Shown one piece after another: positions 37,129 to 42,852 of a stretch of 64,000 nucleotides of DNA. The translations under genes and the position numbers were made by a program. The stretch covers positions 71,159-135,158 of the forward strand of contig JBBRLI010000009.1 in the NCBI GenBank assembly GCA_038231455.1, in the 5' to 3' direction. The notes beneath the pieces are model-generated. The model was given only the letters and a program-made list of their open reading frames with translations. It searched no databases and was not told the DNA's origin. This stretch comes from Vulcanimicrobiales bacterium. Its GTDB lineage: Bacteria > Vulcanimicrobiota > Vulcanimicrobiia > Vulcanimicrobiales > Vulcanimicrobiaceae. The stretch's first letter is position 1; each line of letters begins with the position of its first letter.

Positions 37129-37181
37129 CCGGCTAGTTTGCCAACTCTATCGATAAGCGTCAATAGAAGGGCGAAAAAACC

Positions 37182-37210
37182 TTGACGGACCTTGGCCCCG
37201 GTGGTATCCT
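37182..37210 (+). promoter_or_regulatory. Candidate sigma-70 promoter for rpoB (extended -10)
   Basis: TTGACG (37182-37187), a 17-nt spacer ending in TGG, then TATCCT (37205-37210). This would give a leader of roughly 120 nt before ATG 37338. Confidence 0.45.
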
Positions 37211-37337
37211 CTTCGTCTATGTCCCTCGGTTTGTAGCAGAGGACAGCGAGGAGCGGACAGTCTCTCCGGAGAGTGTTGCGCGCCTTTTTGGTTTTCCGCA
37301 CCCACCCCTTCCCGAATAGGCGAGATAAACAGAACGC

Positions 37338-40300
37338 ATGGCGACGACAAAATCGACGGCCGATAAAGCTCCAGCAAAACCGCGTGCATCGCGCGCGAAG
37401 AAAGCGGTCGAGACCCCGGCAGCAGCTGGCACCGGGTCCACGGTCAAACAACAAAACATCGCAACGGCGACCTTCCAGGTTCCAGCCGAAGCATTTACCG
37501 TTGAGACCTTCGCCGATCCCGGACCCAAACGCGGCCGGCATTCGTTTGCGAAGATCACCTCGGCCCTGCAGATCCCCGATCTCATCGAACTGCAGAAGGC
37601 ATCGTTTAAGTGGTTCATCGAGGACGGCTTAAAAGAAGCGTTCGAATCGATCTCGCCGATCAAAGATTTCACCGGCAACCTCGTGCTGGAATTCGGCGAG
37701 CATAGCCTCGGCGAACCCAAGTACACCGTTGAAGAGTGCCGCGAGCGCGATATGACGTATAGCGCGCCGCTGCGCGTACGCGTCCGCCTCATCACGGCCG
37801 AGTCCGGCGAAATCAAAGGTATTCCCGATCAGGAAATCTTCATGGGCGACTTCCCGCTCATGACGGATAAAGGCACGTTCATGATCAACGGCGCGGAGCG
37901 CGTGATCGTGAGTCAGCTCGTGCGTTCGCCGGGCGTCTATCTGCTCGCCGATAAAGATACCAACGCCCGCGATACGTTCAATGCAACGATCATTCCGAAC
38001 CGCGGCGCCTGGATCGAATTCGAAACCGACAACGGCACGAAGAACGACGAGACCGAAGGCACGATCGGCGTGCGCATCGACAAGAATCGCAAAATTTATG
38101 CGACCACGTTCGTGCGCGCACTCACGCGTCCGGATCTCGGCTTCAACTGGGAGAACGACGAGGCGATCCTTGCGCTCTTCGATCACTCGCCGCTGATCGC
38201 CAACTGCCTCGAAAAAGACAAAGACATCAAGACGCGTGAAGACGCGCTCAAAGAAATCTACAAGAAGCTGCGTCCCGGCGAACCCGAAAATGCGGAAAAC
38301 GCCGAGAAGCTGCTCGAATCGCTGTTCTTCGATGAGAAGCGCTACGATCTCGCGGGCGTCGGCCGCTACAAACTCTCGGGCAAACTCGAGAAAGAGTATC
38401 CGGCAATCGGCATGCCCGTGCCGCAGATCGACAAGAAGGCGCTCTCGCGCGAAGACATGATCGCGGTCATCCGCCGCCTGATCAAAGTCGCGACGCACCA
38501 GGTCCACAAAGACGACATCGATCACCTCGGCAACCGCCGTATCCGTTCGGTCGGCGAACTGTTGCAGAATCAGTTCCGCGTCGGTCTGCTTCGTTTGGAA
38601 CGCGTCGTGCGCGAACGCATGACCGTGCAAGACATCGAGACGGTAACGCCGCAGGCGCTCATCAACATCCGTCCGGTGGTCGCGGCGATCAAAGAGTTCT
38701 TCGGCTCCTCGCAGCTCTCGCAGTTCATGGACCAAACGAACTCGCTTGCCGAACTCACGCACAAGCGTCGCCTCTCCGCCCTCGGGCCCGGCGGTCTCTC
38801 GCGCGAACGCGCCGGCTTCGAAGTCCGCGACGTTCACCACAGTCACTACGGCCGTATCTGCCCGATCGAGACGCCGGAAGGCCCGAACATCGGACTGATC
38901 GGTTCGCTTGCGACCTACGCTCGCGTCAACCGTTTCGGTTTCATCGAAACGCCGTATCGCGTCGTCAAAGACGGCATCGTTTCCAACGACATCAAGTACT
39001 TCACGGCCGACCGTGAAGACGAATACATCGTCGCGCAAGCAAATACGCCGCTCGATGAAAAAGGCCGCATCACGAGCAACTCGGTTGTCGCTCGCTATGC
39101 TGAAGAATACGTCGAGGAGCCGCCGGGCAAGGTCCAGCTCATGGACGTTTCGCCCAAGCAAATCGTGTCGGTTGCAACCGCGCTCATTCCGTTCCTCGAG
39201 CATGACGACGCCAACCGCGCGCTCATGGGCGCGAACATGCAGCGTCAGGCTGTGCCGCTACTCCGCCCGCAGGCGCCGATCGTCGGCACCGGCATGGAGT
39301 ACCGGGCTGCGAAGGACTCCGGCGGCTGCGTGCTCGCACGCGCTAGTGGCGAAGTCATGGCAAGCGATGCAAAACAGATCGTCCTGCGCCACGATGACGA
39401 TGGTCTCGAGCATCCGTACGACCTCTTGAAGTTCACGCGTTCCAACGCCGGAACGTGCATCAATCAGAAACCGATCGTGACGATCGGCGAACGCGTGATG
39501 CGCGGTCAGATTCTCGCGGACGGACCGTCCTCGGAAGTCGGCGAGCTTGCCCTCGGACAAAACGTGCTCGTCGCGTTCATGCCGTGGGAAGGCTACAACT
39601 ACGAAGACGCCATCCTGATCTCCGAGCGTATGGTCAAAGACGATCGCTTCACTTCGATTCACATCGAAGAGTACGAATGCGAAGCGCGCGACACGAAGCT
39701 CGGGCCGGAAGAAATCACCCGCGACATTCCGAACGTCGGCGAAGATTCGCTCAAGGATCTCGACGAGAACGGCATCATTCGCATCGGTGCGGAAGTCCGT
39801 CCGGAAGACATCCTCGTCGGGAAAGTCACGCCCAAGGGCGAGACCGAACTGACGGCGGAAGAGCGCCTACTGCGCGCGATCTTCGGTGAGAAATCACGCG
39901 AAGTCCGCGACACCTCGCTCAAAGTGCCGCACGGCGAAAAAGGCAAGATCATCGACGTCAAGCGCTTCTCGCGCGAAAACGGCGACGAACTCTCGCCCGG
40001 CGTCAACCATCTCGTCCGCGTCTACGTCGCGCAGAAACGCAAGATTCTGCAAGGCGATAAGATGGCCGGCCGTCATGGCAACAAGGGCGTCATCGCCAAG
40101 GTTCTCCCCGAAGAAGACATGCCGTACATGGAAGACGGCACGCCGGTCGACATCGTTCTGAACCCGCTGGGCGTTCCGTCGCGAATGAATCTCGGTCAGA
40201 TCATGGAGACGCATCTTGGCTGGGCCGCACGCATGCTCGGCATGAACATCGCAACGCCGGTGTTCGATGGCGCGCACGCCGAAGACATCGCCGAATGGCT

Positions 40301-41240: not shown

Positions 41241-41291
41241 GACGTCCTGATTCGCGACCGCTCTTCGAGCGCAAATCAGAACGTCCTGAAG

Positions 41292-41324
41292 AAATCCCCG
41301 GCAGCGATGCCGGGGATTTTTTTT
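41292..41324. terminator. Strong rho-independent terminator after rpoB, shared with the convergent glycosyltransferase gene
   Basis: The 12-bp stem AAATCCCCGGCA / TGCCGGGGATTT has a GCGA loop and is followed by TTTTT on the plus strand. The minus-strand stop codon lies at 41323-41325, inside the T-tract. Confidence 0.75.
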
Positions 41325-42852
41325 AGCGCGCCCGCAGCGCGTCGATCCGTTCGCGGACGCGTTCGCCGCTGCGTTGCCACGACCAAGTTGCGGCACGCGC
41401 GGCGGCCGCGAGACCTCGCGCTTCGCGTTCTCTCCGTTCGCGTACGACACGCAGCATTGTCTGAGCGAGCGCGTTGACATCGGGTTCGAGCAGCCAGCCT
41501 TCATCGATGAGGTCGTGGCCGTGTGCGTGTCGCCCGATGGCACGACGCGTTGCGGGGATCGGATATCCGACGCGCTCGTCGACAAAGTCATCGGTCGCGC
41601 CGCCGTGCGTTGTGATCGGCGCGAGCCCACATGCCATCGCCTCGAGCACGGGAAGCGCGAAGCCCTCTCCGCGATAGGGATGCACGTACGCGTTTGCGCT
41701 GCGGTACAGCGAGGCGAGCGTCTGGCTTTCAAGTAATTGATCGACGTAGAGGATCTCCGGCATCCCGGGCGTCTGCGTGATACGCTCGATCAGGGCGCGG
41801 TAGTTCATGCCCGTGTAGGTATCGCCGACGCCGAAATCTTTGATGATCAGCGTCACGTCATCGGCAGAAGTGAACGTACGTGTGTACGCGGAGAGCAAGA
41901 CGTCGATCCCTTTGCGCTCGATCGTGCCGCCGACGTAACAGAAGCGGAATGCTTTTTGCGACGGCAGCGTCAGGCGCGGACCGTCAACGCGAAACACGGA
42001 TGGATCGATGCCGAGCGGAATGACTTGGACGCGCGCCGGATCGAAGCCGGCAGCGGTATAGAGGCCCGCGACATAGGACGATGGACACCACACTTCGTCG
42101 ATGACGTCCCGCGCTGCCGCCCAGTCGCGCGGAAGCGCGCCGTACTCCCACATTTGCATGTGCACATACGTGCGGGCCGGTGGCCGATCGAAGTAGGGCG
42201 GCCAGGGATGGCGGATCCAGACATCAGAGCCGTCGGAGGCAGCCAGCGTATGGGCCATGACGTGGGCCATGCGGGCACGTTCGGACTGGGTGAGGTGATC
42301 GGCCACTTCGGTCCGCAGAACGTGCAATCCATGTTCGCCTTGAGCGAGCGCCGCATGCACGAGTTCGCGATTCACCGCGGCAAGCGAATTCGCGGTGAAA
42401 AATTCGCCTTCCCAAACGACACTGCCATCGGCTTTGGCGGACCCGCCCGCCGCCGGATCGCGGCGCGCGACGAGGAACCATGTCCCCGCATCGCCCGGCT
42501 CGATGCCATGTGCGGCGATACGCAGACCGGTTTCGCGCGCGTGCGCGTATGCATCGCCGAGCGTATGGCGAGTCGGTGTCGTGCGCATAACGAGCAGACC
42601 CCCGCGTGCAAGGGCCGCCCCGGCTTGCGTTACGAGCTCGCGGAACTGGTCGGGCTCGAGATGTTCGGTTTCGTCGATCAGCACGATCGCCGGGCTTTCC
42701 GCGGGCAGCGAGCCACCGCGCGGAACCCAGAGCGTTTCGCGGCCGTCTTGCTTGAGAGCAGCGGCAAAACTGCCGTCGTTCCCATACTCCACGACCCGAG
42801 CGGCGTCGCGCACGATTTCAAAGTAAGCCGCGGTATCCACGTTTGCGTGCAT
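41323..42852 (-). CDS. Glycosyltransferase family 4/GT-B enzyme with N-terminal methyltransferase-like region
   Basis: I prefer ATG 42852 as the start (MHANVDT...). The C-terminal GT1/GT4 signature is present (HPYRGEGFALPVLEAMACGLAPITTHGGATDDFV). The N-terminal ~150 aa resembles the end of a class I SAM-MTase fold (LARGGLLVMRT). Confidence 0.7.
   Translation of the reverse strand: MHANVDTAAYFEIVRDAARVVEYGNDGSFAAALKQDGRETLWVPRGGSLPAESPAIVLIDETEHLEPDQFRELVTQAGAALARGGLLVMRTTPTRHTLGDAYAHARETGLRIAAHGIEPGDAGTWFLVARRDPAAGGSAKADGSVVWEGEFFTANSLAAVNRELVHAALAQGEHGLHVLRTEVADHLTQSERARMAHVMAHTLAASDGSDVWIRHPWPPYFDRPPARTYVHMQMWEYGALPRDWAAARDVIDEVWCPSSYVAGLYTAAGFDPARVQVIPLGIDPSVFRVDGPRLTLPSQKAFRFCYVGGTIERKGIDVLLSAYTRTFTSADDVTLIIKDFGVGDTYTGMNYRALIERITQTPGMPEILYVDQLLESQTLASLYRSANAYVHPYRGEGFALPVLEAMACGLAPITTHGGATDDFVDERVGYPIPATRRAIGRHAHGHDLIDEGWLLEPDVNALAQTMLRVVRERREREARGLAAAARAATWSWQRSGERVRERIDALRAR

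Follow-up and report, generated by a model that had tools for sequence, protein, structure and literature searches.

Stand-alone rpoB genes and the graded dissolution of the rpoB-rpoC link in Eremiobacterota

The rpoB Locus

Few gene orders in bacteria are as conserved as the adjacency of rpoB and rpoC, which is usually explained by a demand for equal amounts of the RNA polymerase subunits beta and beta-prime. Here we describe an rpoB gene that stands without this neighbor in a 64,000-nucleotide stretch of DNA (hereafter the window) from a Vulcanimicrobiales bacterium (GenBank assembly GCA_038231455.1, contig JBBRLI010000009.1, positions 71,159 to 135,158), and compare it with its counterparts in the phylum Eremiobacterota, in which the rpoB-rpoC link is dissolved to graded degrees, and fully so in the clade of the window. 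A preliminary description of the window had presented rpoB as a lone gene with neither rplJ-rplL upstream nor rpoC downstream. This was borne out by tblastn searches with Bacillus queries, which gave no match to RpoC or to RplK/A/J/L in the whole 64-kb window, which reaches 37 kb to the 5' side of rpoB and 22.8 kb to its 3' side. The same description had named a divergent ArsR gene and a convergent glycosyltransferase gene as the flanking genes, and the Pfam and NCBIfam models assigned them to the ArsR/SmtB and GT4 families, respectively. The features of the locus are as follows, the last two lying outside the rpoB unit:

37182..37210, + strand: predicted rpoB promoter (-35 TTGACG at 37182-37187; 17-nt spacer; TG at 37202-37203; -10 TATCCT at 37205-37210)
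37217-37223, + strand: start-site box CTATGTC, 6 nt after the -10 hexamer and part of the P1 stem-loop
37217..37236, + strand: P1 stem-loop (CTAT-GTC-CCTC-GGT-TT-GTAG); the same box and stem-loop open rpoC leaders
37248-37286, + strand: P2 hairpin (core 37253-37281) with T-tracts at 37285-37289 and 37292-37295, a terminator-like candidate attenuator
37338..41240, + strand: rpoB coding sequence, 1300 amino acids (basic N-terminal extension, residues ~1-66; beta core, 67-1129; acidic C-terminal tail, ~1135-1300)
41288-41323, both strands: stem of a predicted bidirectional intrinsic terminator (loop GCGA; A-tract GAAGAAA on the left, T8 at 41317-41324 on the right)
36775..37128, - strand: divergent ArsR/SmtB regulator gene, the upstream neighbor (Pfam HTH_5, NCBIfam NF033788)
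41323..42996, - strand: convergent GT4 glycosyltransferase gene, the downstream neighbor (Pfam Glycos_transf_1, Glyco_trans_1_4)

Identity of the Encoded Beta Subunit

The encoded protein scored 1758.5 bits against TIGR02013 (cut-off 801) and 1715.8 bits against NF001616 over residues 67-1129 (cut-off 896), and the six Rpb2-type domains 1, 2, 3, 45, 6, and 7 were all recognized in order by the Pfam models. An exact-protein database look-up found no identical protein on record. The best 120 database relatives shared 82-98% identity with the window RpoB (89-99% in the core, residues 65-1140) and all belonged to Eremiobacterota; those carrying names were Vulcanimicrobium alpinum (88% identity), Vulcanimicrobiaceae, Baltobacteraceae, and Elarobacter, with two entries that are evidently mislabeled. 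The organism is thereby assigned to the little-studied phylum Eremiobacterota (WPS-2, Vulcanimicrobiota). The rifampicin (Rif) cluster I ([27 protein letters not shown]) retains the Asp, His, and Ser residues, as had been noted before, and differs from that of Bacillus (B. subtilis), Pelotomaculum, and Nostoc by a single P-to-S change. It is identical in 83 of 84 Eremiobacterota loci, and by its residues the region is of the sensitive type.

According to the supplement of PMC9758169, the V. alpinum rpoB gene (WPS_21400) served as the reference gene for quantitative reverse-transcription PCR; rpoC is not among the genes listed there. The published primers map into the V. alpinum locus of our dataset (L081) with a predicted amplicon of 122 bp, as published. 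Judged from sequence comparison, the window rpoB is the housekeeping orthologue and not a paralogue, because the gene is conserved throughout the phylum, its Rif cluster is invariant, and its V. alpinum counterpart is in use as a reference gene. The preliminary description had likewise favored a housekeeping beta subunit over a drug-resistant paralogue.

Both ends of the protein extend beyond the curated RpoB models. The N-terminal extension is basic and ~65 amino acids long (window 37338-37535), and the C-terminal tail (window 40740-41237, residues ~1135-1300) is acidic, with ~36% Asp and Glu over ~165 amino acids. Tail motifs kept across the phylum include [30 protein letters not shown] and, at the extreme C-terminus, SPLA.STD[ED]D[YF]. 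The acidic tail may recall the delta subunit of Bacillus RNA polymerase, whose own acidic tail mimics nucleic acid, and together with the basic head it suggests lineage-specific RNA polymerase biology.

Linkage of rpoB and rpoC across Eremiobacterota

For the comparison of gene order 88 Eremiobacterota loci were used (the window, L052, and L081-L166), 80 of which came from JGI metagenome contigs that were scanned with the lineage-specific part of RpoB. The baseline comprised 79 loci of about ten other phyla obtained from a genome scan with full RpoB, among the matches listed. None of the 88 Eremiobacterota loci had rplK, rplA, rplJ, or rplL upstream of rpoB in tblastn searches; the same ribosomal-protein queries gave matches in 43 of the 79 loci of other phyla, among the matches listed. 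The loss of the rplJL-rpoB link is phylum-wide.

In the other phyla rpoC directly followed rpoB in 72 of the 73 loci with downstream sequence, among the matches listed, in line with the conserved adjacency that the preliminary description had taken as the norm. The sole exception was L022 10001-13387 (Sphaerisporangium sp. B11E5), where rpoC is absent within 10 kb; this rpoB probably belongs to the known actinomycete paralogues. In Eremiobacterota a total of 11 loci had rpoC at a distance between 7 bp and 5.1 kb from rpoB, five of them near-adjacent (7 bp in L130, 21 bp in L145, 58 bp in L129, 159 bp in L119, and 327 bp in L108) and the others in the kilobase range (1.5 kb in L112, 1.8 kb in L153, 2.2 kb in L133, 2.3 kb in L161, 4.9 kb in L124, and 5.1 kb in L101). 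Among the 41 loci with at least 6 kb of fetched downstream sequence, rpoC was missing from that sequence in 33. Six genomes, including the closed 3.5-Mb chromosome of V. alpinum and contigs of 3.89 and 2.98 Mb, had neither rpoC nor ribosomal-protein genes within 10 kb on either side of rpoB. In a neighbor-joining tree of RpoB the window and V. alpinum fell into the same clade, and rpoC was not nearby in any of its 28 loci. Adjacent pairs persisted in L145, which is basal, and sporadically in the other clade.

Full-length RpoC of ~1265 amino acids was found throughout the phylum with the Eremiobacterota RpoC of L153 as query, and the RpoC of L169 scored 1816 bits on TIGR02386. Four rpoC loci illustrate where the gene sits:

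rpoC in L167 (2.18-Mb contig): alone among unrelated genes
rpoC in L168: separated from rpoB by two opposite-strand genes (GGDEF, SBP_bac_5)
rpoC in L169: on the same 121-kb JGI contig as the rpoB locus L142, a member of the window's clade; 18,515 bp from the rpoB stop to the rpoC start, same strand, with opposite-strand genes between
rpoC in L170: neither rpoB nor a ribosomal-protein gene adjoins rpoC

None of the rpoC loci of the window's clade that were examined had rpoB beside rpoC. The suggestion that this lineage had uncoupled beta from beta-prime is supported, as rpoB is alone in the closed V. alpinum chromosome and rpoC is either isolated (L167) or 18.5 kb away (L142/L169).

The genes inserted between rpoB and rpoC comprise a CRP-like regulator, a PabB-like gene with an aminotransferase IV gene, an amino-acid permease gene, NYN-CSD, and a pyrophosphatase gene; since they differ by lineage, the insertions were independent. 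The upstream flank of rpoB is partly syntenic across the phylum (RNase H, DUF3465, a 559-amino-acid protein, GNAT, NUDIX), and the downstream flank varies from genome to genome (GT4, MFS, YjbQ, or insertion sequences). Right after rpoB of V. alpinum (AP025523; L081 14153-23909) lie ~10 kb of insertion sequences of the IS110, IS3/rve, and IS256 types, which makes the junction a rearrangement hot spot.

A small conserved gene, hyp195 (window 50189-50776, - strand), serves as a syntenic marker that is found between rpoB and rpoC in many genomes from the clade of the window (L083, L118, L132, L142, and L170). In the window other genes run on from hyp195 to position 64000, so the rpoC gene of this organism lies more than 22.7 kb from rpoB or elsewhere. 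The peptidase M1 and penicillin amidase genes that precede rpoC in relatives were not found near the end of the window.

A Promoter and Start-Site Box Shared by rpoB and rpoC

The promoter TTGACG-N17-TATCCT with its TG extension at 37182-37210, proposed in the preliminary description, was matched exactly and has the properties of an extended -10 promoter of the sigma-70/sigma-A type, namely two hexamers at a distance of 17±1 nt and TG at -15/-14. It was the only sigma-70-like site found between 36500 and 42000, where 1.3 would be expected by chance; because the scan count alone is at chance level, the significance of the site lies in its conservation in relatives. The combination of TTGAC[GC] and TAnnnT at a distance of 17 or 18 nt was present in 77 of the 85 testable Eremiobacterota loci, corresponding to 66 distinct sequences. 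TG at -15/-14 occurred in 48 of these 66, and a box C[TC][AG]TG[CT]C followed exactly 6 nt after the -10 hexamer in all of them (66/66).

We then searched for the composite motif TTGAC-N17/18-TAnnnT-N6-CTRTGYC on both strands. In 1.39 Mb of Eremiobacterota DNA it was found at 89 sites, 80 of them preceding rpoB and 9 preceding rpoC, with no site elsewhere among ~1300 other genes sampled; it was absent from 1.45 Mb of DNA from other phyla and from five Markov resamplings. Where rpoC is separated from rpoB, even by a gap of only 159-327 bp, it is preceded by the same promoter and box signal, with variant boxes (CTGTGTT and CTGTGCG) at the rpoC loci L161 and L167. Loci with gaps of 7-58 bp have too little room between the two genes for the composite motif. 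Hence rpoB and rpoC have a common promoter and start-box signal that is otherwise unseen in the sampled DNA.

The Leader and Its Hairpins

The distance from the box to the ATG codon is 121 nt in the window. Two types of leader were distinguished, a short one of ~70 nt, in which a 5' GC hairpin is followed by GTTTTCC, and a long one of 111-162 nt, which is found in the clade of the window and in some other lineages. Long leaders begin with the 20-nt P1 stem-loop (CUAU-GCC-NNNN-GGC-NN-AUAG), followed after ~15 nt by the GC-rich hairpin P2 and a run of four to six T, often with an A-rich run before P2. In the window the segment 37240-37295 folds at -23.2 kcal/mol (z = -2.6). The position of P2 is kept in relatives by a GC hairpin with T4-6 through at least seven unrelated stem sequences. 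The leaders of rpoC carry like modules (box, P1, hairpin, and T-rich run), and no Rfam family was found in the rpoB leader.

RNAalifold did not recover P2 on a plain MAFFT alignment of the leaders, in which the arms were misaligned, and a covariance-model alignment was used instead. The covariance model (R1), built solely from 13 V. alpinum-like leaders, matched the window leader at 37217-37293 with 25.3 bits (E-value 0.006). In the leader alignment fitted to the model (A6) 91.4% of the cells were paired compared with 82.7% in shuffles (0 of 500 reached the observed value) and 37-48% in slid controls. The P1 pairs were 99% paired, both sides had changed in 16 of 20 pairs, and double changes were seen in 11 of the 13 P2 pairs. 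P2 thus has the predicted anatomy of an attenuator, a terminator-like hairpin with a U-tract that lies between the start region and the start codon and is conserved with covariation.

Transcripts of Relatives

Ice metatranscriptomes contained rpoB transcripts of close relatives, and the RNA runs yielded contigs of relatives only. One RNA contig (X30, 1164 nt) was 98.6% identical to L087, a near relative of the window with the same neighboring genes. Its 5' end at L087:9655, fused directly to the Illumina adapter, corresponds to window position 37229, 12 nt inside box-P1, and the contig continues through the leader and P2 into the rpoB coding sequence. No RNA contigs upstream of this 5' end were present in the four runs. 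These data support a transcript that starts at the predicted promoter and not read-in from upstream. Of the two transcript ends for which the preliminary description had looked to RNA, the 5' end was thus placed near the predicted start, in the L087 relative, and the 3' ends were uninformative, as the strains diverge right after the rpoB stop codon.

The Terminator after rpoB

The GC-rich hairpin and T-tract reported downstream of rpoB were recovered as a predicted intrinsic terminator at 41288-41324 with a GC core at 41295-41316. The region 41241-41335 folds at -46.6 kcal/mol (z = -5.8), and a hairpin with a T-run in the 160 nt that follow the rpoB stop codon was found in 32 of 56 distinct relatives compared with 2 of 213 intragenic controls. 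A simple terminator scanner missed the site, because the A/U extension of the stem takes up the T-run. The predicted terminator is common to rpoB (+ strand) and the convergent GT4 gene (- strand), the stop codon of which (41323-41325) it overlaps. Among the relatives with such a hairpin and T-run are loci in which rpoC begins just 0.3-5 kb later; the three loci with tightly adjacent genes lack it.

The flank just 3' of the terminator is polymorphic between strains. In two further runs (X2 and X4, related glacier/ice strains) contigs join 41321 straight to 42883, hence the GT4 gene is missing there.

Interpretation and Alternatives

We are confident that the window contains a stand-alone housekeeping rpoB unit, to which coordination in trans and attenuation would be added as putative features. 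The unit would consist of a sigma-A-type extended -10 promoter, a leader of ~120 nt, the coding sequence, and the bidirectional terminator. In the ancestor of the phylum the link to rplKAJL would already have been lost, with rpoB and rpoC still together; the loci L129, L130, and L145, in which 7-58 bp separate the two genes, may be remnants of this ancestral pairing, and at least one of the three is basal. Next, a copy of the module of promoter, box, and leader would have come to precede rpoC. This separate promoter would have made the junction permissive, so that unrelated genes could be inserted without harm and rpoB and rpoC could drift apart.

The promoter/leader element common to both genes might then coordinate the synthesis of beta and beta-prime in trans, with the hairpin and U-tract probably acting as an attenuator that senses RNA polymerase activity and feeds back on both genes. 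For P2 such a response to RNA polymerase is probable by analogy with the attenuator known from Escherichia coli (see below). The broader proposal is that operon coupling was replaced by trans coupling, with rpoB and rpoC each carrying a lineage-specific autoregulatory module of promoter, box, P1, and attenuator and with every stage of the dismantling preserved; this we put forward tentatively, as a possibility that falls a little short of even chances. If it is true, the leader would represent a previously undescribed class of autoregulatory leader RNA, the output of both genes would be set by RNA polymerase or a dedicated factor, and the preserved stages would run from adjacent genes over an internal promoter and inserted genes to fully unlinked genes.

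Several observations weigh against the main interpretation. Two RpoC protein searches (queries L153 and P0222) did not recover rpoC of V. alpinum, nor did they recover any rpoC from the 3.89-Mb and 400-kb contigs. For the clade of the window the comparison covered the rpoB and rpoC loci with their flanks, and a second rpoB or rpoC is excluded only indirectly. As the RpoB tree is a neighbor-joining tree of one protein without support values, it is indicative only, and the number and order of the rpoB-rpoC separation events are uncertain. The distance of 19 nt between the -10 hexamer and the RNA 5' end exceeds that of a usual primary start, which may reflect library truncation or processing within P1. 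Termination at P2 is predicted from its anatomy, and the RNA contig continues past it; the leader showed no alternative fold that could serve as an antiterminator, and the T-tract of the short-leader clade is weak, with TTT or TTTT after the hairpin. The covariance model R1 matched the rpoC leaders of L169 and L170 only weakly (21.6-21.9 bits, E-value 0.04-0.05), and three chance-level matches of like strength occurred in 1.45 Mb of DNA from other phyla. The evidence for a shared leader is the promoter-box motif, together with comparison of the leaders by eye and by fold. The alignment A6, being fitted to the model, is biased toward it and includes a few reverse-strand rows.

The points on P2 and the T-tract are also what favors the most serious rival to the attenuator, namely that the leader stabilizes the mRNA or binds a dedicated protein or small RNA and that the box belongs to a strong housekeeping promoter and start region. 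Stem-loops at the 5' end stabilize mRNA in the ompA leader of E. coli and the aprE leader of B. subtilis, and the read-through at P2, the short T-runs, and the missing antiterminator would all fit such a role. Yet P2, its T4-6, and the A-rich run together show every structural element of an intrinsic terminator, retained through the at least seven stem sequences mentioned above, and the absence of the composite motif before any of the ~1300 other genes speaks against a generic promoter signature. We regard this rival as less likely than not, yet as a serious alternative.

The remaining alternatives concern the rpoB unit as a whole. The preliminary description had also considered a second, specialized rpoB copy, with a canonical rplJL-rpoB-rpoC operon elsewhere in the genome. 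Second rpoB paralogues of actinomycetes, such as rpoB(R) of Nonomuraea, are additional copies whose Rif region is altered and whose distribution is patchy. The window gene is isolated like these known paralogues, of which the Sphaerisporangium case in our baseline is probably an instance, its extensions are unusual, and the comparison covers loci and contigs rather than whole genomes. Against a paralogue stand the occurrence of the same isolation and the same extensions throughout the phylum and the invariant Rif region of the sensitive type. No rpoC locus of the clade that was examined adjoins an rpoB, and one contig bears this type of rpoB together with rpoC 18.5 kb apart. The V. alpinum gene is an expression reference gene, and the gene is transcribed in situ. 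We therefore found no support for a second copy and consider it very improbable; the gene is probably the single rpoB of its genome. Recent horizontal transfer or a mobile island is less probable still. The insertion sequences after the V. alpinum gene and the variation of the downstream flank between strains would suit it, but the upstream flank is syntenic across the phylum, the GC content equals that of the surroundings, the window consists of ordinary chromosomal genes (gatAB, tyrS, mutS2, flagellar genes), and the closest relatives of the protein (best 120) are all from Eremiobacterota.

Least credible of all is that the isolation stems from an assembly or binning artifact, a chimeric join at 37.1 or 41.3 kb, which the preliminary description had named as what would overturn it. 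In its favor, the window is metagenomic, a gene as conserved as rpoB is one in which an assembler may switch strains, and sequencing depth spikes inside it. However, Logan contigs of a sediment metagenome run (X1, which holds 92% of the sampled words) cover 35500-37904 with 1 mismatch and 40496-43500 with 0 mismatches and so cross both junctions, at an even depth of ~12. An independent 400-kb ENA scaffold (L082), the RpoB of which is 98% identical, has the same order as the window, ArsR-rpoB-GT4-M16-Spherulin4-DUF2252, the closed isolate genome also has an isolated rpoB, and GC content is uniform. Mis-assembly at either junction is excluded.

Relation to Known Systems

The rplL-rpoB attenuator of the E. 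coli rplKAJL-rpoBC operon is described as decoupling and autoregulating the synthesis of beta and beta-prime (PMC4670729; PMC6181997, citing Newman et al., 1982). The Eremiobacterota arrangement is similar in its product and in the terminator-like structure directly upstream of rpoB in the transcript. It differs in that the window rpoB has no ribosomal-protein genes upstream and no rpoC next to it, that the promoter lies immediately before the hairpin, and that rpoC has a second copy of the module. In mycobacteria, as far as described in PMC6181997, rpoB-rpoC is detached from rplJL and has dedicated promoters and a conserved leader region that tunes expression. The window rpoB shares the detachment from rplJL, the dedicated promoter, and the conserved leader, but unlike the single mycobacterial rpoB-rpoC transcript the units of Eremiobacterota are separate, kilobases or more apart. 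With the actinomycete paralogues it has in common only that rpoB stands without rpoC, being itself a phylum-wide orthologue with a Rif region of the sensitive type. The fused rpoBC of Helicobacter and Wolbachia (NF007172) and the split rpoC1/rpoC2 of cyanobacteria (TIGR02387/TIGR02388) are likewise lineage-specific rearrangements of beta and beta-prime, but they keep the adjacency that is itself lost in Eremiobacterota. A near-universal co-transcribed pair has also been broken in particular lineages in the case of the 16S and 23S rRNA genes, which are reported as unlinked in some bacteria (bioRxiv 10.1101/705046). These are different genes. To our knowledge no shared leader has been reported for them.

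Literature searches for a split of rpoB and rpoC in bacteria or in Eremiobacterota found no report, only plastid cases and papers on the operon, and no earlier report of this leader was found. As a gene this rpoB is ordinary. What appears to be new is the form that a highly conserved arrangement takes here, and the leader qualifies as a candidate for a new cis-regulatory RNA. The graded relaxation across a phylum with a cultured member, V. alpinum, offers a natural experiment on the persistence and decay of operons, and the shared promoter/leader motif offers a testable answer to how stoichiometry could be kept without co-transcription. In practical terms rpoB and rpoC, both in standard use as single-copy markers and in phylogenetics, will often lie on different contigs of metagenome-assembled genomes in Eremiobacterota.

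Neighboring Genes and Minor Observations

The ArsR neighbor is restricted to the closest relatives of the window (L082 and L087). In one clade a zinc-ribbon gene (Pfam zf_Tbcl, ~110 amino acids) adjoins rpoB on its 5' side; the gene was located as follows:

zf_Tbcl gene: L084 9435-9764; L085 9492-9827; L168 1819-2157; L169 14395-14757 (in L169 just downstream of rpoC)

The remainder of the window is ordinary chromosome with an even GC content of ~0.60, from which the rpoB region does not differ, and includes a flagellar/chemotaxis cluster, gatAB, mutS2, tyrS, hsp33, and a tRNA-Pro gene. Apart from rpoB the window has a single very long open reading frame (1225 amino acids, 54540..58217), which was considered as a possible rpoC and rejected, as it encodes a Tricorn-like protease. 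The flagellar/chemotaxis cluster (143-14430) comprises motA, motB, fliM, fliN, fliP, fliR, flhB, flhA, and genes for CheC and CheA-CheW; flhB and flhA are separated by a gene for a MASE4-GGDEF diguanylate cyclase (6990-8393), and flhA is followed by a PilZ gene (10627-11301). Just 5' of rpoB in the window (34320-36490) there are partner-switching genes, two encoding STAS proteins and one an RsbW-like HATPase_c_2 protein, and 5' of rpoB in V. alpinum (L081 5217-9741) there are genes for SpoIIE phosphatases and HATPase_c_2. The presence of partner-switching genes near rpoB may be a coincidence or a recurrent tie to sigma-factor control.

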